From NCBI GenBank assembly GCA_963662715.1, contig OY759724.1, forward strand, positions 1,800,001-1,832,000: a stretch of DNA of 32,000 bases. Reading direction: 5' to 3'. The DNA is from Candidatus Omnitrophota bacterium (GTDB lineage: Bacteria > Omnitrophota > Gorgyraeia > Zapsychrales > JANLHA01). The translations under genes and the position numbers were made by a program. Of this stretch, positions 6,296-30,515 are shown one piece after another. Numbering within the stretch: position 1 is the first letter of the stretch; the number at the start of each line of letters is the position of its first letter. The notes below the pieces were generated by a model. That model was not told the origin of the DNA. It did not search any database and saw only the letters and a list, made by a program, of their open reading frames with translations.

Positions 6296-6754
6296 TTGAA
6301 GAATATGAAAGACTACAAACGGACATCCAATAAACATTTAGGTGAATTACTCGTTGAGAAGGGTGTTATCGACCGGGAACAGGTCGCCATGGCCATGGCT
6401 TATCAAAATGAGAATGGCGGTCTTATCGGCGAGATCTTAGTTGAATTGAAATTCGCCACCGAAGAAGACATCGCTCAAGCCCTTACCTGCCAATATGGAT
6501 TCCCCTACCTGCCCTTATCGAACTATGAAATCGATCAAGAAGTCATTAACGCCGTCCCGGAGAACGTCTGCCAGAAGAATTGTCTTATCCCCATTGATAA
6601 GATCGGAAAAAGTTTGACCGTGGCCATGTCCAATCCTTTAAATCAAACAGCTGTCGAGGATATTGAAATGCTGACCGGTTGCAGTGTGCAAACCTTTGTG
6701 TCAACGACAAGCGATATCAAAGAAGCTATCAAAAAATACTACAGTATAGTTTAA
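6296..6754 (+). CDS. stand-alone MshEN / T2SSE_N domain protein (putative c-di-GMP receptor), no ATPase domain
   Basis: 152 aa that align by eye with the N-terminal roughly 150 aa of both downstream ATPases (VPENV..LIPIDK..LTVAMSNPLN..EDIEMLTG..IKEAIKKYY). Tandem 24-aa MshEN-like motifs (HLGELLVEKGVIDREQVAMAMAYQ, then LIGEILVELKFATEEDIAQALTCQ) are separated by the 5-aa spacer NENGG. The start could be TTG 6296 or ATG 6305. Confidence 0.8.
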   Translation: MKNMKDYKRTSNKHLGELLVEKGVIDREQVAMAMAYQNENGGLIGEILVELKFATEEDIAQALTCQYGFPYLPLSNYEIDQEVINAVPENVCQKNCLIPIDKIGKSLTVAMSNPLNQTAVEDIEMLTGCSVQTFVSTTSDIKEAIKKYYSIV

Positions 6755-6761
6755 GGACCCT

Positions 6762-8498
6762 ATGTTTTCCTTAAAAGAGCGATTACAAGAAATCCTTCTG
6801 CGAGATAACATTATTAAGCAGGAAGATTTAGACAGGGCTTTACAAGAACAAAAGAAATCCGGCGGTGATCTGAGTAAAGTCCTGGTGGAGTTAAATCTTA
6901 TTGGCGAGGATGACTTAACGCATATTCTCAGTGAAGGCTTGGGCCTCCCCCCGATTGACATATCCCGGCTGACAATCGACCCCAATGTCGTTAAGCTTAT
7001 TCCCCAGGAAGTCGCTGTCAAGTACCAGATTATGCCTATTTCCAAAATGGGCGGGAATCTGACGTTGGCGATGGCGGATCCGTTGAACATTTTTATTATT
7101 GATGATGTCAAAACCTTAACGGGGCTGAACATTACACCTATTATTGCCAGGTCCACACAGCTTCAGCAGGCGATTGAGCATTGTTATACGAATGAGGGTG
7201 AGTCTGCCGAAACACTGGAAAGCATTATTAAGGATATGCGTGATGCCGAGGAACTGGAGTTGGTGAAGGATCTGGAAGGGGACGGGGAGAAAGTATCCGT
7301 TGAAGATATTACCCAGGATGCCCCGATGATCAAGCTCACGGATACGATCATCCAGCAGGCTGTTATGGCCAAGGCCAGTGACGTTTTTATTGAGCCCTTG
7401 GAAAAAACGCTTCGTATCCGTTACCGTGTGGACGGGATTATCCGGGAAATTGATCAGATGTCGAAGGCGTTGCATCTTCCGATCATTTCCCGTATTAAAG
7501 TCATTTCCAACCTGGATATTTCCGAAAGGCGGGTTCCTCAGGACGGGAGATTCCGGACGATCCTTTCCGGAAACAGGGAAGTGGATTTCCGCGTGAACGT
7601 TTTGCCGACTGTTTTCGGGGAAAAGATCGTTTTGCGTGTTCTGGATAAATCGGCCGGGATGGTCGATATCGCCCAGCTGGGTTTTCAGCCGGCGGACCTG
7701 AAGAGGCTCCAGGAATGCTCCCAGAAACCGCACGGGATGATTTTGTCCTGCGGTCCGACGGGCAGCGGGAAAACGACAACACTATATTCTATTTTGAAAT
7801 TTGTGGACTCCCCGGGCAAAAACATCGTGACCGTTGAAGATCCTGTGGAATATCAGATGGTCGGGATGAATCAGGTGAACGTTAAGCCTTCGGTGGGCCT
7901 GAGTTTCGCTTCGACGTTACGTTCTATTTTGCGCCAGGACCCGGATGTGATCATGATCGGAGAAATCCGGGAGAGGGAAACCCTGGATATCGCTGTTAAG
8001 GCCGCGTTGACCGGGCATCTTGTCGTCAGTTCTTTGCATACCACGACCGCCCCAGGCTCTGTGATCCGTATGGTGAATATGGGCGTTGAACCTTTCCTTA
8101 TCTGTTCTTCTGTTATTGCCATTGTCGGCCAGAGATTATTAAGAAGGATCTGTCCGAAATGCAAACAGGAGAACGTGGTGTCAAAGGAAATGGCCGATAA
8201 ATTAGGCCTCCAGACAAAAGGGCAGAAGGGAGAGTTGACCCTTTTTCGCGGCAAAGGTTGTAAAAACTGTTTGAACACAGGGTACAAGGGCCGGGTGGGG
8301 ATCGCGGAAGTCCTGGTCCTGACCCCCAAGGTCCGGAAGGAAATTTTACAGCATTCCGGGGAACTGCAGATCAAAATGACCGGGAGAAAAGAAGGTATGA
8401 CGACCATGCGGGAAGATGCCGTGGCCAAAGCTTTGGCGGGTTTGACAACGATGGAAGAAGTGTTGCGGGTGACGGCCCCCGATGAGCCGCTGCCGTAA
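6762..8498 (+). CDS. pilB: type IV pilus / T2SS assembly ATPase, PilB/GspE family (paralog 1)
   Basis: T2SSE_N-like N-domain, Walker A GPTGSGKTTT, Walker B/Asp box DPDVIMIGEIRE, His box SSLHT, and a tetracysteine motif CPKC...CKNC typical of assembly rather than retraction ATPases. Confidence 0.9.
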   Translation: MFSLKERLQEILLRDNIIKQEDLDRALQEQKKSGGDLSKVLVELNLIGEDDLTHILSEGLGLPPIDISRLTIDPNVVKLIPQEVAVKYQIMPISKMGGNLTLAMADPLNIFIIDDVKTLTGLNITPIIARSTQLQQAIEHCYTNEGESAETLESIIKDMRDAEELELVKDLEGDGEKVSVEDITQDAPMIKLTDTIIQQAVMAKASDVFIEPLEKTLRIRYRVDGIIREIDQMSKALHLPIISRIKVISNLDISERRVPQDGRFRTILSGNREVDFRVNVLPTVFGEKIVLRVLDKSAGMVDIAQLGFQPADLKRLQECSQKPHGMILSCGPTGSGKTTTLYSILKFVDSPGKNIVTVEDPVEYQMVGMNQVNVKPSVGLSFASTLRSILRQDPDVIMIGEIRERETLDIAVKAALTGHLVVSSLHTTTAPGSVIRMVNMGVEPFLICSSVIAIVGQRLLRRICPKCKQENVVSKEMADKLGLQTKGQKGELTLFRGKGCKNCLNTGYKGRVGIAEVLVLTPKVRKEILQHSGELQIKMTGRKEGMTTMREDAVAKALAGLTTMEEVLRVTAPDEPLP

Positions 8499-8578: not shown

Positions 8579-10297
8579 TTGTCAGATATGTCACAACCAC
8601 TTAAGACAAAGATTATTCAAACGCTGATAGAGTCGCTCAATATTAAAAAAGAGGACCTGAACGAGGCGATGGAGCTGCAGAAAAGCAAGAACATCAGCCT
8701 GGACAGGGCTTTGATTGAGAAAGGCCTTATCAAAGAAGAAGACCTGATGGTCCTGCTTGTCCGGGAACTTCATATCCCTTTTATTAATTTAAAAAAATAC
8801 AAGATCGACCTTTCTTTAAAAGAGGTTATCCCCGAACGGGTCGCCCGGCAATACCGTATAATTCCTCTTTCCCAAATGGAAAAGACTATTACGATTGCGA
8901 TGTCTGATCCCTTAAATATCTTTGCCATTGATGATCTCAAGAATCTGACGGGCAAGGATGTGGACGTTGTCATGAGCACGGAATCAGATATTATGAATAC
9001 GATCGAAAGTTATTATGGCGGGAAGATTTCCAGTTCGGTCCAGGACGTCAGTAAGGATATCGACGTGGGGGGGCTGGAAATTATTTCTGACAGTGAGCTG
9101 ATTGAGGGTGCGGAGATCGCCGCTGATGAAGGGGAGCAGGCGCCCATTATCCGGCTTGTGAACCTTGTCATCCGGGAAGCCATAAAACAGCGGGCTTCGG
9201 ATATTCATATCGAGCCGATGCTCGACAGCATGCGCGTCCGTTACCGTATCGACGGGACTCTTGTGAACGCCATGAAAATCCCCAAAGACAATCAAAATGC
9301 CATTATCGTCCGTGTCAAGATCATGTCCCGCCTGGATATTACGGCCACCCAGGTGCCGCAGGACGGCCGTTTTAAAATGCGGGTCGCCAACCAGGAAGTG
9401 GATTTCCGCGTGTCTCTTTTGCCGACGACTTTCGGGCAGAAAATTGTCATGCGCGTCCTTGATAAAAAGAATCTGCGTGTCGGGCTGGACGGTCTTGGTT
9501 TCTCAGAGGCGTCGATCGAGAAGCTTAAAGATGCCATTGCGCAACCTTTTGGCATGATCCTCGTGACAGGTCCTACGGGGAGCGGGAAATCGACAACCCT
9601 GTATTCGATTATCAATGAGTTGAATCAGGTTGATAAGAATATTATTACTGTCGAAGACCCGGTTGAATATGTCGTTGATGGTTTGACGCAGATTCAGGTT
9701 AAAGCGGATATCGGATTGACTTTCGCGGAAGGCTTAAAGGCGATCCTCCGGCAGAGTCCGGATATTGTTATGGTCGGGGAAATCCGTGATTTTGAGACGG
9801 CGGACATCGCTATTAAGGCGTCGTTAACGGGGCAAATGGTTTACTCGACGCTGCATACCAATGATGCTCCGGGGGCGTTAACGCGTTTGGTTGATATGGG
9901 CGTAGAGCCTTTTTTGGTGTCCTCGAGTCTGGTGCTGGTCTGCGCACAAAGACTTTGCCGTAAAATATGCCGGCACTGTAAAGAACCTGTCACGATCCCG
10001 GATAAAGTTTTGCAGGAGTTGGGCATCCCGGTGAAAAAAGGACAGATTTTTTATCAGGGAAAAGGTTGCGATGGCTGCCGGCAAACAGGTTTTTTCGGAA
10101 GAATAGGCGTTACAGAAATGATGCCGTTGGACGATCATATCCGGGAGCTGCTGATTATGGGGAAGTCTTCCGATGAAATTAAGAACTATGCCAGGGAAAA
10201 AATGGGAATGCTGACATTGTGGGAAGACGGCGTGCAGAAATTTCTGCAGGGGGAGACAACATTGGATGAGGTCCTGAGGATCAGCTCCAGCGATTAA
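8579..10297 (+). CDS. pilB: type IV pilus / T2SS assembly ATPase, PilB/GspE family (paralog 2)
   Basis: Same architecture as paralog 1: GPTGSGKSTT, SPDIVMVGEIRD, STLHT, CRHC...CDGC. By eye about half of the core positions are identical to paralog 1. The start could be TTG 8579 or ATG 8588. Confidence 0.9.
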   Translation: MSDMSQPLKTKIIQTLIESLNIKKEDLNEAMELQKSKNISLDRALIEKGLIKEEDLMVLLVRELHIPFINLKKYKIDLSLKEVIPERVARQYRIIPLSQMEKTITIAMSDPLNIFAIDDLKNLTGKDVDVVMSTESDIMNTIESYYGGKISSSVQDVSKDIDVGGLEIISDSELIEGAEIAADEGEQAPIIRLVNLVIREAIKQRASDIHIEPMLDSMRVRYRIDGTLVNAMKIPKDNQNAIIVRVKIMSRLDITATQVPQDGRFKMRVANQEVDFRVSLLPTTFGQKIVMRVLDKKNLRVGLDGLGFSEASIEKLKDAIAQPFGMILVTGPTGSGKSTTLYSIINELNQVDKNIITVEDPVEYVVDGLTQIQVKADIGLTFAEGLKAILRQSPDIVMVGEIRDFETADIAIKASLTGQMVYSTLHTNDAPGALTRLVDMGVEPFLVSSSLVLVCAQRLCRKICRHCKEPVTIPDKVLQELGIPVKKGQIFYQGKGCDGCRQTGFFGRIGVTEMMPLDDHIRELLIMGKSSDEIKNYAREKMGMLTLWEDGVQKFLQGETTLDEVLRISSSD

Positions 10298-10483
10298 TAA
10301 TTATATTATCATTTATTGAAAATTTTTGGCAGCGGGCAGAAAAAATTTCTTATGCCGCAATGAAAATATGCCCGACGTCGTATCGAATTTTAAAAAAACA
10401 AAAAAATTCCATGAAAGACTTTTTATCTCCCCCAAAATGATGTTATATTATGGGTGGATGATTTTTACATAAGGACAGAAAAC

Positions 10484-11686
10484 ATGCCTACCTATAAATA
10501 CGTAGCAAAAGACCAGTCGGCGCGTAATGTCGTTGGCAAAATTAACGCCGAAAGTCAGTCGTCTGTCATCGAGGAGCTGAGAAAACGGCAGCTCACCATT
10601 ATCGATGTCAAAGAAGTAAAGTCGGGTACTTCCAAAGCCTATTTTGTCAGGAAATCCGTTAAGCCCGAAGATCTCGTCGTGTTCTCCCGGCAGTTATCGA
10701 CCATGGTGGACGCCGGCATCCCCATATTGCAGGCCCTGGATGCTTTGCAGGAACAGATCACACAAGCCTATTTCCAATCTGTGGTGATCGCGGTCCGTGA
10801 TGATATCCAGCTTGGCAGCAGTTTATCCGCCGCCTTTGCAAAACATCCCAAAGCGTTTGATACGCTCTTTGTTAATATGGTTAAAGTCGGTGAGACCGGC
10901 GGTGTTTTAAGCTCGATCCTGGACCGGATATCTTCTTACCTGGAAAAGACCTTAAAGTTGAAACGGAAAGTCAAATCCGCGTTAATATATCCCAGCGTTG
11001 TTATTTTTATGGCGGTTGTTATCACGGTTATTCTGCTTGTCAAAGTCGTCCCCACGTTTGCTTCCATTTATGATTCCTTCGACTCAGAGCTGCCGGCCAT
11101 GACCCAGATGCTGATCAATGTCAGTGACCTGCTTAAACATAATTTATTGTATTTGCTGGGAGGGCTGGTGCTGTTTGGGATCCTGGTGACACGGGGGTAT
11201 CACACCGATCGCGGTCGGGAAATTATTGATAGAGTGTCTTTACGCGTTCCTATCTTCGGCCCGCTCATCCGTAAAGTCGCCATCAGCCGTTTTAGCCGGA
11301 CGTTGGCGACGTTATTGCAGACGGGCGTCCCGATCCTGGAATCCCTGGATATCGTTGGCCGGACCAGCGGGAACCGGGTCGTAGAAAATGTTATCGTGAA
11401 TGTCAAAAATAACGTCCGGGAGGGGGAGAGTATCGCGACTCCTTTGGTGAAGAGCGGTGTGTTTCCTCCCATGGTGACGCGTATGATTTCTATCGGGGAA
11501 AAATCGGGCCAGTTGGAAAAAATGTTGGGTAAAATTGCTGATTTCTACGATGATCAAGTCGATGCTGCCGTTGCCGGTTTAACGAGTATTATTGAACCCC
11601 TCATCATTGGTTTTCTTGGTATTGTCGTTGGTTTTATTGTTATCGCGTTATTTTTGCCGATTATTAATATTACTCAGATTATTTAA
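10484..11686 (+). CDS. pilC: type IV pilus / T2SS inner-membrane platform protein PilC/GspF
   Basis: Two GspF-type repeats (FSRQLSTMVDAGIPILQAL and FSRTLATLLQTGVPILESL) and three TM segments. I use ATG 10484 (MPTYKY..., AAGGA 8 nt upstream) rather than the track GTG at 10454. Confidence 0.9.
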   Translation: MPTYKYVAKDQSARNVVGKINAESQSSVIEELRKRQLTIIDVKEVKSGTSKAYFVRKSVKPEDLVVFSRQLSTMVDAGIPILQALDALQEQITQAYFQSVVIAVRDDIQLGSSLSAAFAKHPKAFDTLFVNMVKVGETGGVLSSILDRISSYLEKTLKLKRKVKSALIYPSVVIFMAVVITVILLVKVVPTFASIYDSFDSELPAMTQMLINVSDLLKHNLLYLLGGLVLFGILVTRGYHTDRGREIIDRVSLRVPIFGPLIRKVAISRFSRTLATLLQTGVPILESLDIVGRTSGNRVVENVIVNVKNNVREGESIATPLVKSGVFPPMVTRMISIGEKSGQLEKMLGKIADFYDDQVDAAVAGLTSIIEPLIIGFLGIVVGFIVIALFLPIINITQII

Positions 11687-11720: not shown

Positions 11721-13295
11721 ATGGTTTTTACAAAAGAAAAGATTTTTGTTTGTTTTTTAAGCATTTCTCTGTTGTGTTTCCGTCTCCCCGGACTTTTCGC
11801 AGAAGAGGAGGCTCCCGCAGAGAAAATGCCTGCCGAACTGATGTTGGAGAACGCTATTGTTGATTTAAAGCAGACCATGAAAGACGCTATCCGGAAGAAT
11901 GAAGAGATTGAACAAAGAAATGGTGTGTTGCGTCAGGAGATTCTGAAGTATAAGGAGGACTTGCTCGAGCTGGAGAAGGAGAAAGACCAGTTCCTGGATG
12001 AACAGAGAATCCTGCAGGAAGCTTTGAGATTGCAGGAAGAGAAAAAGGACCTGTTGCTGAAAAAAACGGCGTCTCTGGCGGAAGAACAGAAATACCGGGC
12101 TGAAAAACAGGGGGATATGCAAAAGGAAATAGAGATTTTTATTAAAAAGCAGGATGCCTATCAGAAAGAAGCGGTTTTATTGGAGAACGAGGTGGATTTT
12201 TTTCGGAAGCAAGCCCGGAAAAAGGACCTGCAGGCTTTTTTGCGGGATAAGGATAGCAAAAGAAAAGAATTGGAAGAGCAAATAGCAGAAAAGGAAGAAA
12301 GTTTCAGGAAAAGAAAAGAGGATTTTCAGCGGGCGAAACAAAACATTGCTGAAGCATGCGATAAGAGAGACCGCCTTGAATCGGAAAAGGCAGAGAGGCA
12401 GCAGGCCATGGCTGAATTACATAATCAACGGGATAGTCTCGTGCGGGAGAAGGATGTTCTAGAAAAGCAGCGGGCGTCTTTTCAGACTAAAGAAGAAGCC
12501 CAGTTGCAGGCCTTTCAGGAAGACCTGGCCCGTCTGCGGTCCTATAAAGAACAATTGGAAAATGGTATTAACGATATGAAGGAAGCCCGGGAGCAGATAA
12601 AATATTCCTTTTCCCTGCAGGAAAAACAGTTCTCTGCTTTCAAAAAGTCGTTCGTTCAAGAGGCCGCTTTGCTGCAGAGGCAAAAAAGAGAATTGGAGAG
12701 TCTTGTCGCGTTGCAGAAAGCCATCTGCGATTTCTTACCCGAGGACAAGGCTTCGGACAGAGATATTTCCCTTGTCCGGGAATCTCTTCAGGATGAGATT
12801 CATAATACAAAGCTGGCCATTAAGAAGGCGCATATTTTTATTAGGGATTATCAAAAGCAGGAAAAAAAGCTTGTCCATGAAATCGCCCGCTTAGAAGCCA
12901 AGAAGAAACAGGTGGAGCGCCAGGCGTCAGAATCATCCGAGTCGGCCGAAGACATCAAAGAAGAGCTGACCCGTTTATTATCCGACGTTGAATTTGAAGA
13001 TGATGTTCCGGCCGAGGCTCCGGCAGCGGCCCGTGACGATAAAAGTCCTAAACCGCGTTCTGAGACAGACCGGACCGTAGAACGGGAAATTGAAGCTATG
13101 CAGTTAAGAGAGGCTGTTTTGTCGAATTCTTTGTCAATAATTCAGACACGTTATGAACAGGAAAAAGCGGTTGTCGATGATTTTCACAAGGAAGAAAAAG
13201 AACTTAAGGAATATTGGCAGGTTCTGCAGCAGGAGAATCGGGCCCTCCAGGAAAAAGTTTCCGGGCTTATTCAAGCCGTCGAAGCCGGCGAGTAG
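11721..13295 (+). CDS. secreted/periplasmic coiled-coil protein of unknown function embedded in the pilus cluster
   Basis: Long ORF with coding-like composition. Hydrophobic N-terminal signal-like segment (IFVCFLSISLLCFRLPGLFA|EEE), then about 480 aa of E/K/Q/R/L-rich heptad-like sequence and an acidic/proline linker (SESSESAED...PAEAPAAARDDKSPKP). I recognise no catalytic motif. Confidence 0.7.
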   Translation: MVFTKEKIFVCFLSISLLCFRLPGLFAEEEAPAEKMPAELMLENAIVDLKQTMKDAIRKNEEIEQRNGVLRQEILKYKEDLLELEKEKDQFLDEQRILQEALRLQEEKKDLLLKKTASLAEEQKYRAEKQGDMQKEIEIFIKKQDAYQKEAVLLENEVDFFRKQARKKDLQAFLRDKDSKRKELEEQIAEKEESFRKRKEDFQRAKQNIAEACDKRDRLESEKAERQQAMAELHNQRDSLVREKDVLEKQRASFQTKEEAQLQAFQEDLARLRSYKEQLENGINDMKEAREQIKYSFSLQEKQFSAFKKSFVQEAALLQRQKRELESLVALQKAICDFLPEDKASDRDISLVRESLQDEIHNTKLAIKKAHIFIRDYQKQEKKLVHEIARLEAKKKQVERQASESSESAEDIKEELTRLLSDVEFEDDVPAEAPAAARDDKSPKPRSETDRTVEREIEAMQLREAVLSNSLSIIQTRYEQEKAVVDDFHKEEKELKEYWQVLQQENRALQEKVSGLIQAVEAGE

Positions 13296-13353
13296 TATAA
13301 CTTATTTAATATTAAGTAGTAGCCGGGGGCAATGGCAGGAAATTTTCCCGGCC

Positions 13354-13383
13354 TTGACAAGGCCGTTTTGAGGATAGTATACT
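13354..13383 (+). promoter_or_regulatory. sigma70-type promoter (TTGACA-18-TATACT) driving the riboswitch leader
   Basis: TTGACA at 13354-13359, 18-nt spacer, TATACT at 13378-13383. The -35 lies inside the perfect palindrome GGCCTTGACAAGGCC (13350-13364). Confidence 0.6.
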
Positions 13384-13404
13384 TTCAGTAGGTTTAGACA
13401 ATTT

Positions 13405-13505
13405 GGAGATGTCAAAGGTAAACCATTCGTAAGGATGGGACACAAAGCTAGAGGGCCCTACCAGAGGGAGAGATATCCCCGGAGGGCAGCCAGTTGCCAT
13501 CAGAA
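13405..13505 (+). promoter_or_regulatory. c-di-GMP-I (GEMM-I)-like riboswitch aptamer
   Basis: AGGTAAACCATTCGTAAGGATGGGACACAAAGCT (13416-13449) resembles the 5' half of the V. cholerae Vc2 aptamer as I recall it (GGGCAAACCATTCGAAAGAGTGGGACGCAAAGCC), including a GNRA-capped hairpin. A GC-rich second helix follows, then a closing GGCAGCCAGTTGCC segment. TTGCC 13494-13498 can pair with GGTAA 13417-13421. The boundaries are approximate. Confidence 0.75.
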
Positions 13506-13531
13506 GGTTGTATTTACAAGGCAAAAACGAT

Positions 13532-13566
13532 AATCTGTCCATCTTACGAAGGACAGATTTTTTTTT
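13532..13566 (+). terminator. intrinsic terminator (riboswitch expression platform)
   Basis: AATCTGTCC (13532-13540) pairs with GGACAGATT (13551-13559). Inner T-A and C-G pairs leave a TTAC loop. A run of 9 T follows (13558-13566). Confidence 0.85.
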
Positions 13567-13753
13567 GGAATTGAATTGACAGTTAGAGGAACTATGTTAG
13601 CATGGAACTAAAGAAAAAGCCGACCTGTAAGCTAAGACAATGCCTCAGAGCAAGTTATGTGAACCGTCATTATTCGTATTTTTTGCTTTTGTTCTGTCAG
13701 GGTTGTTGATGGCTTGCGTGGTTAATCCGGGCTTGTGAAAGGAGGGAAAGAAA

Positions 13754-14146
13754 ATGAATAAGAAAGGTTTTACGCTCGTTGAAATCATGATCGTCGTCGC
13801 CATCATCGCCTTACTGGCAGCCATCGCTATTCCTAACTTGCTAAGAGCCAAGATCTCTGCTAATGATGCGTTGGCAAAGAGTACATTGCGTTCGCTGTCA
13901 ACAGCTTCCGAGACCTTCGCCACGGCAAATACGGGTAATTATCCTGTTGACATTACGTCTTTGACCGGCGCTACGCCGCCGTATATCAACACGGAATATT
14001 GTGCAACCACAGTGTCCGGTTTTAATTACTCCTGTACTTTTGACGCCAGTGGTGGACACTATACGTATACTGCAACTCCGGTAACTGTTGGAACATCAGG
14101 GACAACGACTTACACGATTACAACGGGAGGTATTTTAACTCCGTAG
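13754..14146 (+). CDS. prepilin with class III signal peptide (type IV pilin / GspG-like major pseudopilin)
   Basis: MNKKG|FTLVEIMIVVAIIALLAAIAIPNLL is a short basic leader, a G|F cleavage site, Glu at +5 and a hydrophobic helix. A GspG-like NTGNYP motif is present. A Cys pair (YCATTVSGFNYSC) and a T/G-rich C-terminus follow. GGAGG lies about 9 nt upstream. Confidence 0.9.
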   Translation: MNKKGFTLVEIMIVVAIIALLAAIAIPNLLRAKISANDALAKSTLRSLSTASETFATANTGNYPVDITSLTGATPPYINTEYCATTVSGFNYSCTFDASGGHYTYTATPVTVGTSGTTTYTITTGGILTP

Positions 14147-14174: not shown

Positions 14175-14207
14175 TAGGGGGGGCCAGCATGGCCCCCCCT
14201 ATTTTTT
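14175..14207 (+). terminator. strong intrinsic terminator after the pilin gene
   Basis: TAGGGGGGGCC (14175-14185) pairs perfectly with GGCCCCCCCTA (14191-14201) around a 5-nt loop AGCAT. T6 follows (14202-14207). Confidence 0.9.
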
Positions 14208-14331: not shown

Positions 14332-14466
14332 ATGAGGCCTCCCCCATTAAATACAGTTATTATTATTATACTTATACTCGGATTTATTGCCTTTGCCCGG
14401 TATCTTGTGATTGTTAACCAGGATATCCAGCAGCAAATCACTCTGGTCGGTCATACAGCGAGGTAA
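14332..14466 (+). CDS. unannotated 44-aa small membrane protein (hypothetical)
   Basis: Too short for the ORF track. AAGGAGG (14321-14327) lies 4 nt before the ATG. Translation is MRPPPLNTVIIIILILGFIAFARYLVIVNQDIQQQITLVGHTAR, with one clear TM helix. Stop TAA at 14464-14466. Confidence 0.4.
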   Translation: MRPPPLNTVIIIILILGFIAFARYLVIVNQDIQQQITLVGHTAR

Positions 14467-30140: not shown

Positions 30141-30213
30141 GCCCCTGTAGCTCAGCCGGTAGAGCACGTCCTTGGTAAGGACGGGGTCACCGGTTCAAGT
30201 CCGGTCGGGGGCT
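30141..30213 (+). tRNA. tRNA-Thr (anticodon GGT)
   Basis: Hand-folded cloverleaf. Acceptor GCCCCTG/CGGGGGC with one G-U pair, D arm GCTC..GAGC, anticodon stem CGTCC/GGACG with loop TTGGTAA, T arm ACCGG-TTCAAGT-CCGGT. No encoded CCA. Confidence 0.9.
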
Positions 30214-30441: not shown

Positions 30442-30515
30442 AGGCCTGTAGCTCCAACTGGCAGAGCAACGGTCTCCAAAACCGTGTGATGTAGGTTCGA
30501 ATCCTACCAGGCCTG
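30442..30515 (+). tRNA. tRNA-Trp (anticodon CCA)
   Basis: Hand-folded cloverleaf. Acceptor AGGCCTG/CAGGCCT, anticodon stem ACGGT/ACCGT with loop CTCCAAA, T arm with GGTTCGAATCC. Its position before secE is a widely conserved arrangement. Confidence 0.9.

Follow-up and report, generated by a model that had tools for sequence, protein, structure and literature searches.

GEMM-I riboswitches, which respond to cyclic di-GMP (c-di-GMP), have been known since 2007-2008 and were linked to pilus genes from the outset. We analyzed a 32,000-nucleotide (nt) stretch of DNA from a Candidatus Omnitrophota bacterium (GenBank assembly GCA_963662715.1, contig OY759724.1, positions 1,800,001 to 1,832,000; hereafter the window, numbered from its first letter), and focused on a c-di-GMP-I (GEMM-I) aptamer at 13407-13501, in the leader of a major type IV prepilin gene. 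All features of the window described below are on the + strand. GEMM elements were already associated with pilM, pilO, pilQ and pulF (PMC1950547), and in the common GEMM design the 5' arm of a terminator lies over the 3' side of the second aptamer hairpin, which gives ON logic (PMC1950547). In C. difficile, the class I riboswitch Cd1 is located upstream of flgB and is a terminator-type OFF switch, in which c-di-GMP causes premature termination (PMC6366702). The class II riboswitch Cdi-2-4 (RF01786) of the same organism is located upstream of pilA1, and c-di-GMP turns pilA1 ON (PMC6366702). In Bdellovibrio bacteriovorus, merRNA, which was defined by its massive expression and has no conserved downstream open reading frame (ORF), was proposed to be a store of c-di-GMP (PMC3627812). 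No published c-di-GMP riboswitch in Omnitrophota was found in the literature searched, the coverage of which was incomplete.

The window element resembles each of these systems in part. With Vc2, the Vibrio cholerae RNA that is the type example of Rfam family RF01051, it shares a two-hairpin aptamer, an AAA linker, a GNRA-type tetraloop and the equivalents of G20, A47 and C92, and, as with Vc2 and GEMM-I, it is found in the 5' leader of a pilus or motility gene. Like Cd1, it consists of a class I aptamer followed by an intrinsic terminator, has a surface appendage as its target, and would act as an OFF switch. Unlike Cd1, its target is the pilus and not flagella, its putative antiterminator would use the internal first hairpin and the junction rather than, or besides, the 3' strand of the closing helix, and there is a promoter-like sequence (P2) downstream of the terminator. 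The terminator-type platform directly 5' of a major type IV pilin gene is shared with Cdi-2-4; the aptamer here is of class I, and the sign suggested by the anatomy is the opposite one. With merRNA it has in common a c-di-GMP-I aptamer that is set in a discrete unit from promoter to terminator, and a lineage for which host dependence has been proposed. Unlike merRNA, it is always followed by a pilin gene (25 of 25 leaders). Overall, we consider it probable that the locus is a canonical class I switch on a pilin leader, with c-di-GMP acting in the OFF direction.

The identity of the aptamer was established by scanning the whole window against all 4227 Rfam families. Matches above the gathering score were limited to three: two tRNAs and RF01051, which matched 13407-13501 with 57.7 bits (gathering score, 35; E = 5.8e-9) over model positions 1-87 of 87. 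The original prediction, made by eye, had placed a c-di-GMP-I aptamer here on the + strand and had named an RF01051 search as its check and the class II model RF01786 as the control. Both the assignment and the orientation are borne out: the score is well above the threshold, RF01786 gave no match at E <= 10 in a permissive scan of 13300-13800, and the layout is conserved in relatives. By its sequence, the element is almost certainly a c-di-GMP-I riboswitch, and its RNA is predicted to bind c-di-GMP.

The fold is that of a regular class I aptamer. The closing helix (the P1 helix of the aptamer) pairs GAUG at 13408-13411 with CAUC at 13498-13501. The core AGGTAAACCATTCGTAAGGATGGGACACAAAGCT is at 13416-13449, the junction pairs are 13418-13419/13442-13443, and GGCAGCCAGTTGCC is at 13485-13498. 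The first hairpin (13423-13428/13433-13438) is capped by a GUAA loop at 13429-13432. The second hairpin, which is GC-rich, occupies 13446-13493; close to its base is an AG bulge (13488-13489). The AAA linker between both hairpins is at 13444-13446. Unlike the RF01051 consensus, in which the junction pair is C-G, the window has a U-A pair at this place. The GUAA loop is of the GYRA type and the AG bulge replaces the 11-nt receptor; a GYRA subtype without receptor was already described by Weinberg et al. 2007 (PMC1950547).

A covariance model built from 13 homologues scored the aptamer at 99.9 bits. Over the 18 modelled pairs, 99.1% of the cells across the 13 homologues are paired, compared with 23-49% when the partners were slid. 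Three of the 18 pairs change on both sides, a number that was reached by none of 500 shuffles; the covariation is nevertheless modest, as most pairs are invariant among the homologues. Also invariant are G13417, A13444 and C13497, the canonical set of ligand contacts. As placed by the Rfam alignments, we take these to be the equivalents of G20, A47 and C92 of Vc2, A47 being the intercalating adenine. In the Rfam alignments, G13417 and C13497 are unpaired ligand-contact positions. Because these two nucleotides are pocket residues, TTGCC at 13494-13498 and GGTAA at 13417-13421, which had originally been proposed to pair back to each other, do not form the closing helix; that role belongs to 13408-13411/13498-13501 in the Rfam alignments. 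In the pocket, G20 recognizes one guanine of the ligand and C92 makes a Watson-Crick pair with the other (PMC6140456).

Two variants of the same clan, with the same overall fold as the window aptamer, differ from it at one of these positions each and were rejected. RF03167 (c-di-GMP-I-GGC) was the best clan member by E-value in the permissive scan, yet its 57.3 bits fall short of the gathering score (59), and where the variant has its defining G, at the A47 position, the window has A13444. The GEMM-Ib RNAs that sense cyclic GMP-AMP have an A at position 20 (PMC6140456), and at the equivalent position the window and all 13 homologues have G.

The aptamer is part of a compact transcription unit. 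Upstream of it is a promoter (P1) with the sequence TTGACA-18-TATACT at 13354-13383, as originally described, which scored 11 of 12 in a consensus scan; transcription would start near 13387-13391. Downstream, an intrinsic terminator at 13532-13566 is made of a 9-bp stem (13532-13540/13551-13559; strands AAUCUGUCC/GGACAGAUU), a 10-nt loop (13541-13550) and a run of nine T residues (13558-13566), the first two of which also close the stem. The 9-bp stem and T9 had been read correctly by eye, and the predicted folding energy is -13.5 kcal/mol (z = -3.6 compared with shuffles). Our consensus terminator scan allows loops of 3-8 nt only and therefore missed this terminator. The ATG of the prepilin gene (13754-14146; 130 aa; PF07963 N_methyl motif, E = 1e-8) is 188 nt past the T-run, close to the distance of about 185 nt first given, and is preceded by the ribosome binding site (RBS) AGGAGG at 13740-13745. 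The distance from the end of the aptamer to the pilin gene is 250 nt. The pilin transcript is closed by a strong intrinsic terminator at 14175-14207, with a 12-bp stem containing nine GC pairs followed by TTTTTT.

We found that this arrangement is conserved in the closest relatives, whose PilM proteins are 79-82% identical to that of the window. RF01051 matched at the same position in seven of seven fetched loci, with 57.6-58.4 bits. In the intergenic alignment of these close relatives, conservation starts exactly at the -35 hexamer of promoter P1, and the DNA 5' of P1 has diverged and is unalignable. The hexamers of P1 are invariant and its spacer is variable. The conserved stretch continues through the aptamer, the terminator and its T-run, a second TTGACA-16-TGnTAGCAT sequence, and parts of the 5' untranslated region (UTR) down to the RBS. 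Changes in the terminator are compatible with wobble pairing.

A wider survey covered 80 Omnitrophota PilM loci (the relatives being annotated as Candidatus Omnitrophota), all of which were searched with the covariance model from 13 aptamers. About 24 of the 80 species, including some with PilM only about 45% identical, have a full-length aptamer 1-2 kb ahead of pilM and on its strand. This gave 25 pilin-linked leaders. In every one of them the aptamer is followed by a terminator hairpin with a run of T5-T9 that begins 30-57 nt past the aptamer, and by a pilin gene that starts 94-461 nt past the aptamer and encodes the conserved N-terminus KGFTLVEIMIVVAIIALLAAIAIPNLLRAK. A promoter scoring at least 10 of 12 is located 14-40 nt before the aptamer in 21 of the 25 leaders, compared with 2.3% of random windows of the same loci.

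These comparisons also bear on the possibility that the GEMM-like sequence of the window is degenerate, or due to chance, and regulates nothing. Such a reading can appeal to the fact that the function of the window copy is judged from sequence comparison. We regard it as extremely improbable and effectively refuted, given a match with E = 5.8e-9 that is 22 bits above the gathering threshold, an invariant core with helices that covary across species whose PilM proteins are about 45% identical, and an intergenic region that is conserved while the flanking non-coding DNA is not.

Several of the surveyed loci have unusual arrangements. One leader contains two complete tandem aptamer-terminator units (L045:912-1062 and L045:1099-1245), and another locus has one unit ahead of each of two separate pilin genes (L071:1816-1961 and L071:2951-3090). 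Five aptamers are long (117-162 nt; L039:3065-3181, L066:2974-3114, L040:2625-2786, L036:2970-3097 and L063:2821-2973), with extra hairpins inserted in the second hairpin or the junction; they score 45-77 bits and have the same layout of terminator and pilin gene. A second GEMM-I of a different subtype (L027:8-96), whose junction pair is C-G, whose loop is GUGA and whose second hairpin differs, is upstream of an 841-aa ORF that is not a pilin gene. Omnitrophota genomes therefore carry more than one c-di-GMP-I riboswitch.

The direction of the switch was left open by the original prediction, and we addressed it by comparing the terminators with their aptamers. The terminator stem begins past the end of the aptamer in each of the 25 leaders, with no nucleotide in common; a ligand-stabilized aptamer is therefore compatible with termination. 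The terminator 5' arm is unusually constant in sequence, reading CCYAUUCY as a consensus and UGUCC(C/A)UCUU within the window clade, and has its complement in the 3' strand of the first hairpin together with the GGGAC junction. In the window, the proposed upstream strand of the antiterminator is 13429-13442, which runs from the GUAA loop through the 3' strand of the first hairpin to the GGGACA junction. GUAAGG at 13429-13434 can pair with UCUUAC at 13542-13547, and GGACA at 13438-13442 with UGUCC at 13536-13540, such that 13536-13547 of the terminator doubles as the downstream strand (predicted duplex energy, -11.4 kcal/mol). This is essentially the second of two alternative pairings that had been noted by eye, between AAGGATGGGACA at 13431-13442 and TGTCCATCTT at 13536-13545, and it is the one that finds comparative support.

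That support comes from several measures applied to the 25 leaders. For leaders folded up to the start of the terminator 3' arm, pairing between the 5' arm and aptamer positions 23-36 is part of the minimum free energy (MFE) structure in 11 cases. The energy of the duplex between aptamer positions 22-40 and the 5' arm has a mean z of -2.0 compared with composition-matched shuffles, and z is below zero in 24 leaders. In 22 leaders, of all upstream 19-nt segments, the one that pairs best with the 5' arm begins at aptamer positions 12-23. The first-hairpin segment pairs with the riboswitch terminators at an average of -13.0 kcal/mol and with 57 other terminators of the same loci at -5.8 kcal/mol (Mann-Whitney p = 1.3e-8; as the leaders are phylogenetically related, p-values are optimistic and independence is overstated). 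In addition, the equivalent of 13440 covaries with the terminator: the pair is A-U in the window clade and L072, G-C in L065, L039 and L066, and G-U in L046 and L074. The segment that competes for the 5' arm must fold into the aptamer when ligand is bound; binding would therefore free the 5' arm and lead to termination. Because the antiterminator pairing is supported comparatively, the direction that had been left open is read as OFF, and we think it likely that the switch is off at high c-di-GMP.

An ON switch, in which c-di-GMP prevents termination and raises pilin expression, would match C. difficile pilA1 and the common GEMM design, in which the terminator competes with the second hairpin. 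Many GEMM instances have a terminator that overlaps the 3' side of that hairpin (Weinberg 2007, PMC1950547), and c-di-GMP often promotes type IV pili elsewhere, for example via MshEN ATPases, which are encoded adjacent to the element here (PMC5013675). Within the window clade, GGCAA at 13520-13524 can pair with UUGCC at 13494-13498, the first of the two alternative pairings noted originally. When the ligand-free fold is forced, this helix forms beside the antiterminator and coexists with it, so the pairing stands as a supporting helix of the ligand-free conformer, confined to the window clade. An ON arrangement is also hard to reconcile with the lack of shared nucleotides between terminator and aptamer in all 25 leaders. 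The sole conserved competitor of the terminator is a segment that is folded into the ligand-bound aptamer, and no linker element able to act as a ligand-released antiterminator is conserved beyond single lineages. We judge an ON switch to be quite unlikely.

An antiterminator made of the 3' strand of the closing helix and the linker was also considered as partner of the terminator 5' arm. By eye, it is clear in the second unit of the tandem leader (L045b) and weak or absent in the window and most lineages, and it was rejected as the general mechanism.

We propose the following mechanism for the OFF switch. Transcription would start from P1, the aptamer would be made, and its later fold would be set by c-di-GMP. 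With c-di-GMP bound, the first hairpin (13423-13438) and the GGGACA junction would be locked in the aptamer, the terminator (13532-13559) would form, and RNA polymerase would stop at the T9 run, releasing an RNA of about 175 nt and yielding no P1-derived pilin mRNA. At low c-di-GMP, 13536-13547, which supplies the 5' arm and loop of the terminator as it is being transcribed, would pair with 13429-13442; this would block the terminator and allow read-through across about 190 nt into the pilin gene.

A number of observations weigh against this reading, at least for the window copy. Its antiterminator is weaker than that of most relatives, with stronger duplexes in L072 and L066 among others: the duplex z of the window is -1.8, and the segment ranks 7th of 118 windows. 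For the partial transcript of the window, the aptamer and antiterminator conformers have predicted energies of -39.2 and -35.2 kcal/mol, a difference of 4 kcal/mol in favor of the aptamer fold, compared with -41.4 and -42.3 kcal/mol in L009. A window-specific insertion, GGTTGTATTTACA, which is absent from the closest relatives, lengthens the closing helix (13398-13404 with 13504-13511) and gives the aptamer fold an advantage of about 4 kcal/mol over the antiterminator. The window copy may thus be biased towards termination, terminating by default. More generally, the aptamer plus terminator is the equilibrium MFE fold in most leaders, and control must therefore be kinetic; a ligand of nM-pM affinity could tip the balance between the conformers. 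Three leaders (L069, L086 and L036) show little complementarity, the relatedness of the leaders tempers the statistics, and an OFF switch on a pilin gene is opposite in sign to the class II switch of C. difficile pilA1.

The promoter-like sequence between the riboswitch terminator and the pilin gene, which had been overlooked, bears on how much of pilin expression the switch could control. This putative promoter P2 (TTGACA-16-(TG)TAGCAT, 13576-13603) scores 10 of 12, has an extended -10 TG, and starts 10 nt past the T-run. Its hexamers are invariant and its spacer is variable in the close relatives. Among the 25 leaders, 14 have a site scoring at least 10 of 12 within 110 nt past the terminator (background in random windows of the same loci, 2.3%). 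P2 probably yields a basal pilin mRNA that is independent of the riboswitch. Given that P2 is conserved, the riboswitch would gate only the P1-derived part of pilin transcription, which amounts to tuning and not full gating. The original proposal that pilin transcription is gated through termination control is thus upheld for termination control, by the comparative evidence for the antiterminator, and narrowed in its reach, as the switch covers part of transcription. If P2 is active, the quantitative weight of the switch becomes uncertain, which also counts against the mechanism proposed above. By-eye inspection ahead of the pilin gene found no convincing GG-N10-GC element of a sigma-54-type promoter.

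The presence of P2 also makes it conceivable that the unit is a stand-alone RNA, in which transcripts from P1 through the aptamer to the terminator nearly always terminate, giving a c-di-GMP buffer, sponge or trans-actor of about 175 nt that resembles merRNA, with pilin expressed from P2 only. A promoter-like site directly past the terminator in the window clade and in 14 of the 25 leaders fits this idea, as do the aptamer-plus-terminator fold being the MFE structure at equilibrium, an aptamer fold that is favored in the window even without ligand, and the precedent of merRNA, a c-di-GMP riboswitch RNA without a cis target (PMC3627812). Other findings speak for regulation in cis. A same-strand pilin gene always follows the unit directly, in contrast to merRNA, downstream of which no ORF is conserved. 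The 5' arm of the terminator is constrained to complement the first hairpin (p = 1.3e-8), a constraint that a constitutive terminator does not need. A good P2 is absent in 11 of the 25 leaders, and the tandem complete units of the L045 leader are typical of cis-regulation. We therefore hold the stand-alone RNA to be unlikely, and prefer the OFF switch acting on P1-derived pilin mRNA.

The rest of the pilin 5' UTR, from P2 to the ATG (13610-13760), had no significant fold (z = -1.0) and no Rfam match. It includes a block at 13652-13676, TTATGTGAACCGTCATTATTC, that is invariant in the close relatives. A similar string, TTTATGTGAACCGC, makes up the linker and terminator 5' arm of the L027 riboswitch. 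The block may have remained from a second unit, or it may bind a protein.

The riboswitch is located inside a type IV pilus cluster, and all genes of the window are on the + strand. Upstream, mreBCD and the genes for PBP2 and rodA precede those for a stand-alone 152-aa MshEN-domain protein (6296-6754), two PilB-type ATPases with MshEN domains (6762-8498 and 8579-10297), and PilC (10454-11686). Between PilC and the riboswitch is a gene for a 524-aa coiled-coil protein with no Pfam match (11721-13295). This protein has an N-terminus resembling a signal peptide and a long coiled coil in which E, K and Q are abundant, and its position between pilC and the riboswitch is kept in relatives; when the low-complexity protein was used as a probe for related loci, no relative was confirmed. 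Downstream of the pilin gene are PilM, PilN, PilO, a small protein and the PilQ secretin, followed by housekeeping genes. A 44-aa ORF at 14332-14466, between the pilin gene and pilM, has a good RBS; its product includes a hydrophobic stretch (MRPPPLNTVIIIILILGFIAFAR...). All close relatives have a called gene of 36-43 aa at this position. The two tRNA genes detected in the Rfam scan (30141-30213 and 30442-30515; 67.1 and 61.4 bits) are just 5' of nusG and the gene for ribosomal protein L11.

The MshEN-domain proteins provide a second potential point of contact between c-di-GMP and the pilus. In the 152-aa protein, a c-di-GMP-binding motif of 24 residues occurs twice in tandem, in near-canonical form, with 5 residues between the copies (HLGELLVEKGVIDREQVAMAMAYQ-NENGG-LIGEILVELKFATEEDIAQALTCQ). 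The motifs of both PilB ATPases are degenerate, with G positions replaced. From these sequences, c-di-GMP may act on the same pilus at the level of RNA and at the level of protein.

A further, quite improbable extension of these observations is that the cassette is a semi-autonomous module, in which an abundant RNA of about 175 nt buffers c-di-GMP or acts in trans and read-through adds to, or occludes, transcription from P2. If this were true, c-di-GMP would act on the pilus at two levels, possibly with opposite signs: the riboswitch would lower pilin mRNA, and the adjacent MshEN-domain proteins would act on the assembly ATPases.

With respect to riboswitch biology, the element is a regular member of RF01051 that would combine the sign of Cd1 with a target of the pilA1 type. 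What it adds are details at the level of the lineage, and not a new kind of system; knowledge of the riboswitch class is unchanged, and any Rfam-based annotation pipeline would flag the element. The recurrent promoter past the riboswitch terminator is a small architectural oddity. For the organisms, the finding means more. Omnitrophota, an uncultured phylum with little-known signalling and with proposed host-dependent or predatory members, gains a well-supported c-di-GMP receptor, and c-di-GMP is linked to the major type IV pilin in approximately a quarter to a third of the sampled species. The prediction for these bacteria is that high c-di-GMP would lower read-through into the pilin gene, opposite to its effect on C. 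difficile pilA1, the best-studied pilin riboswitch.

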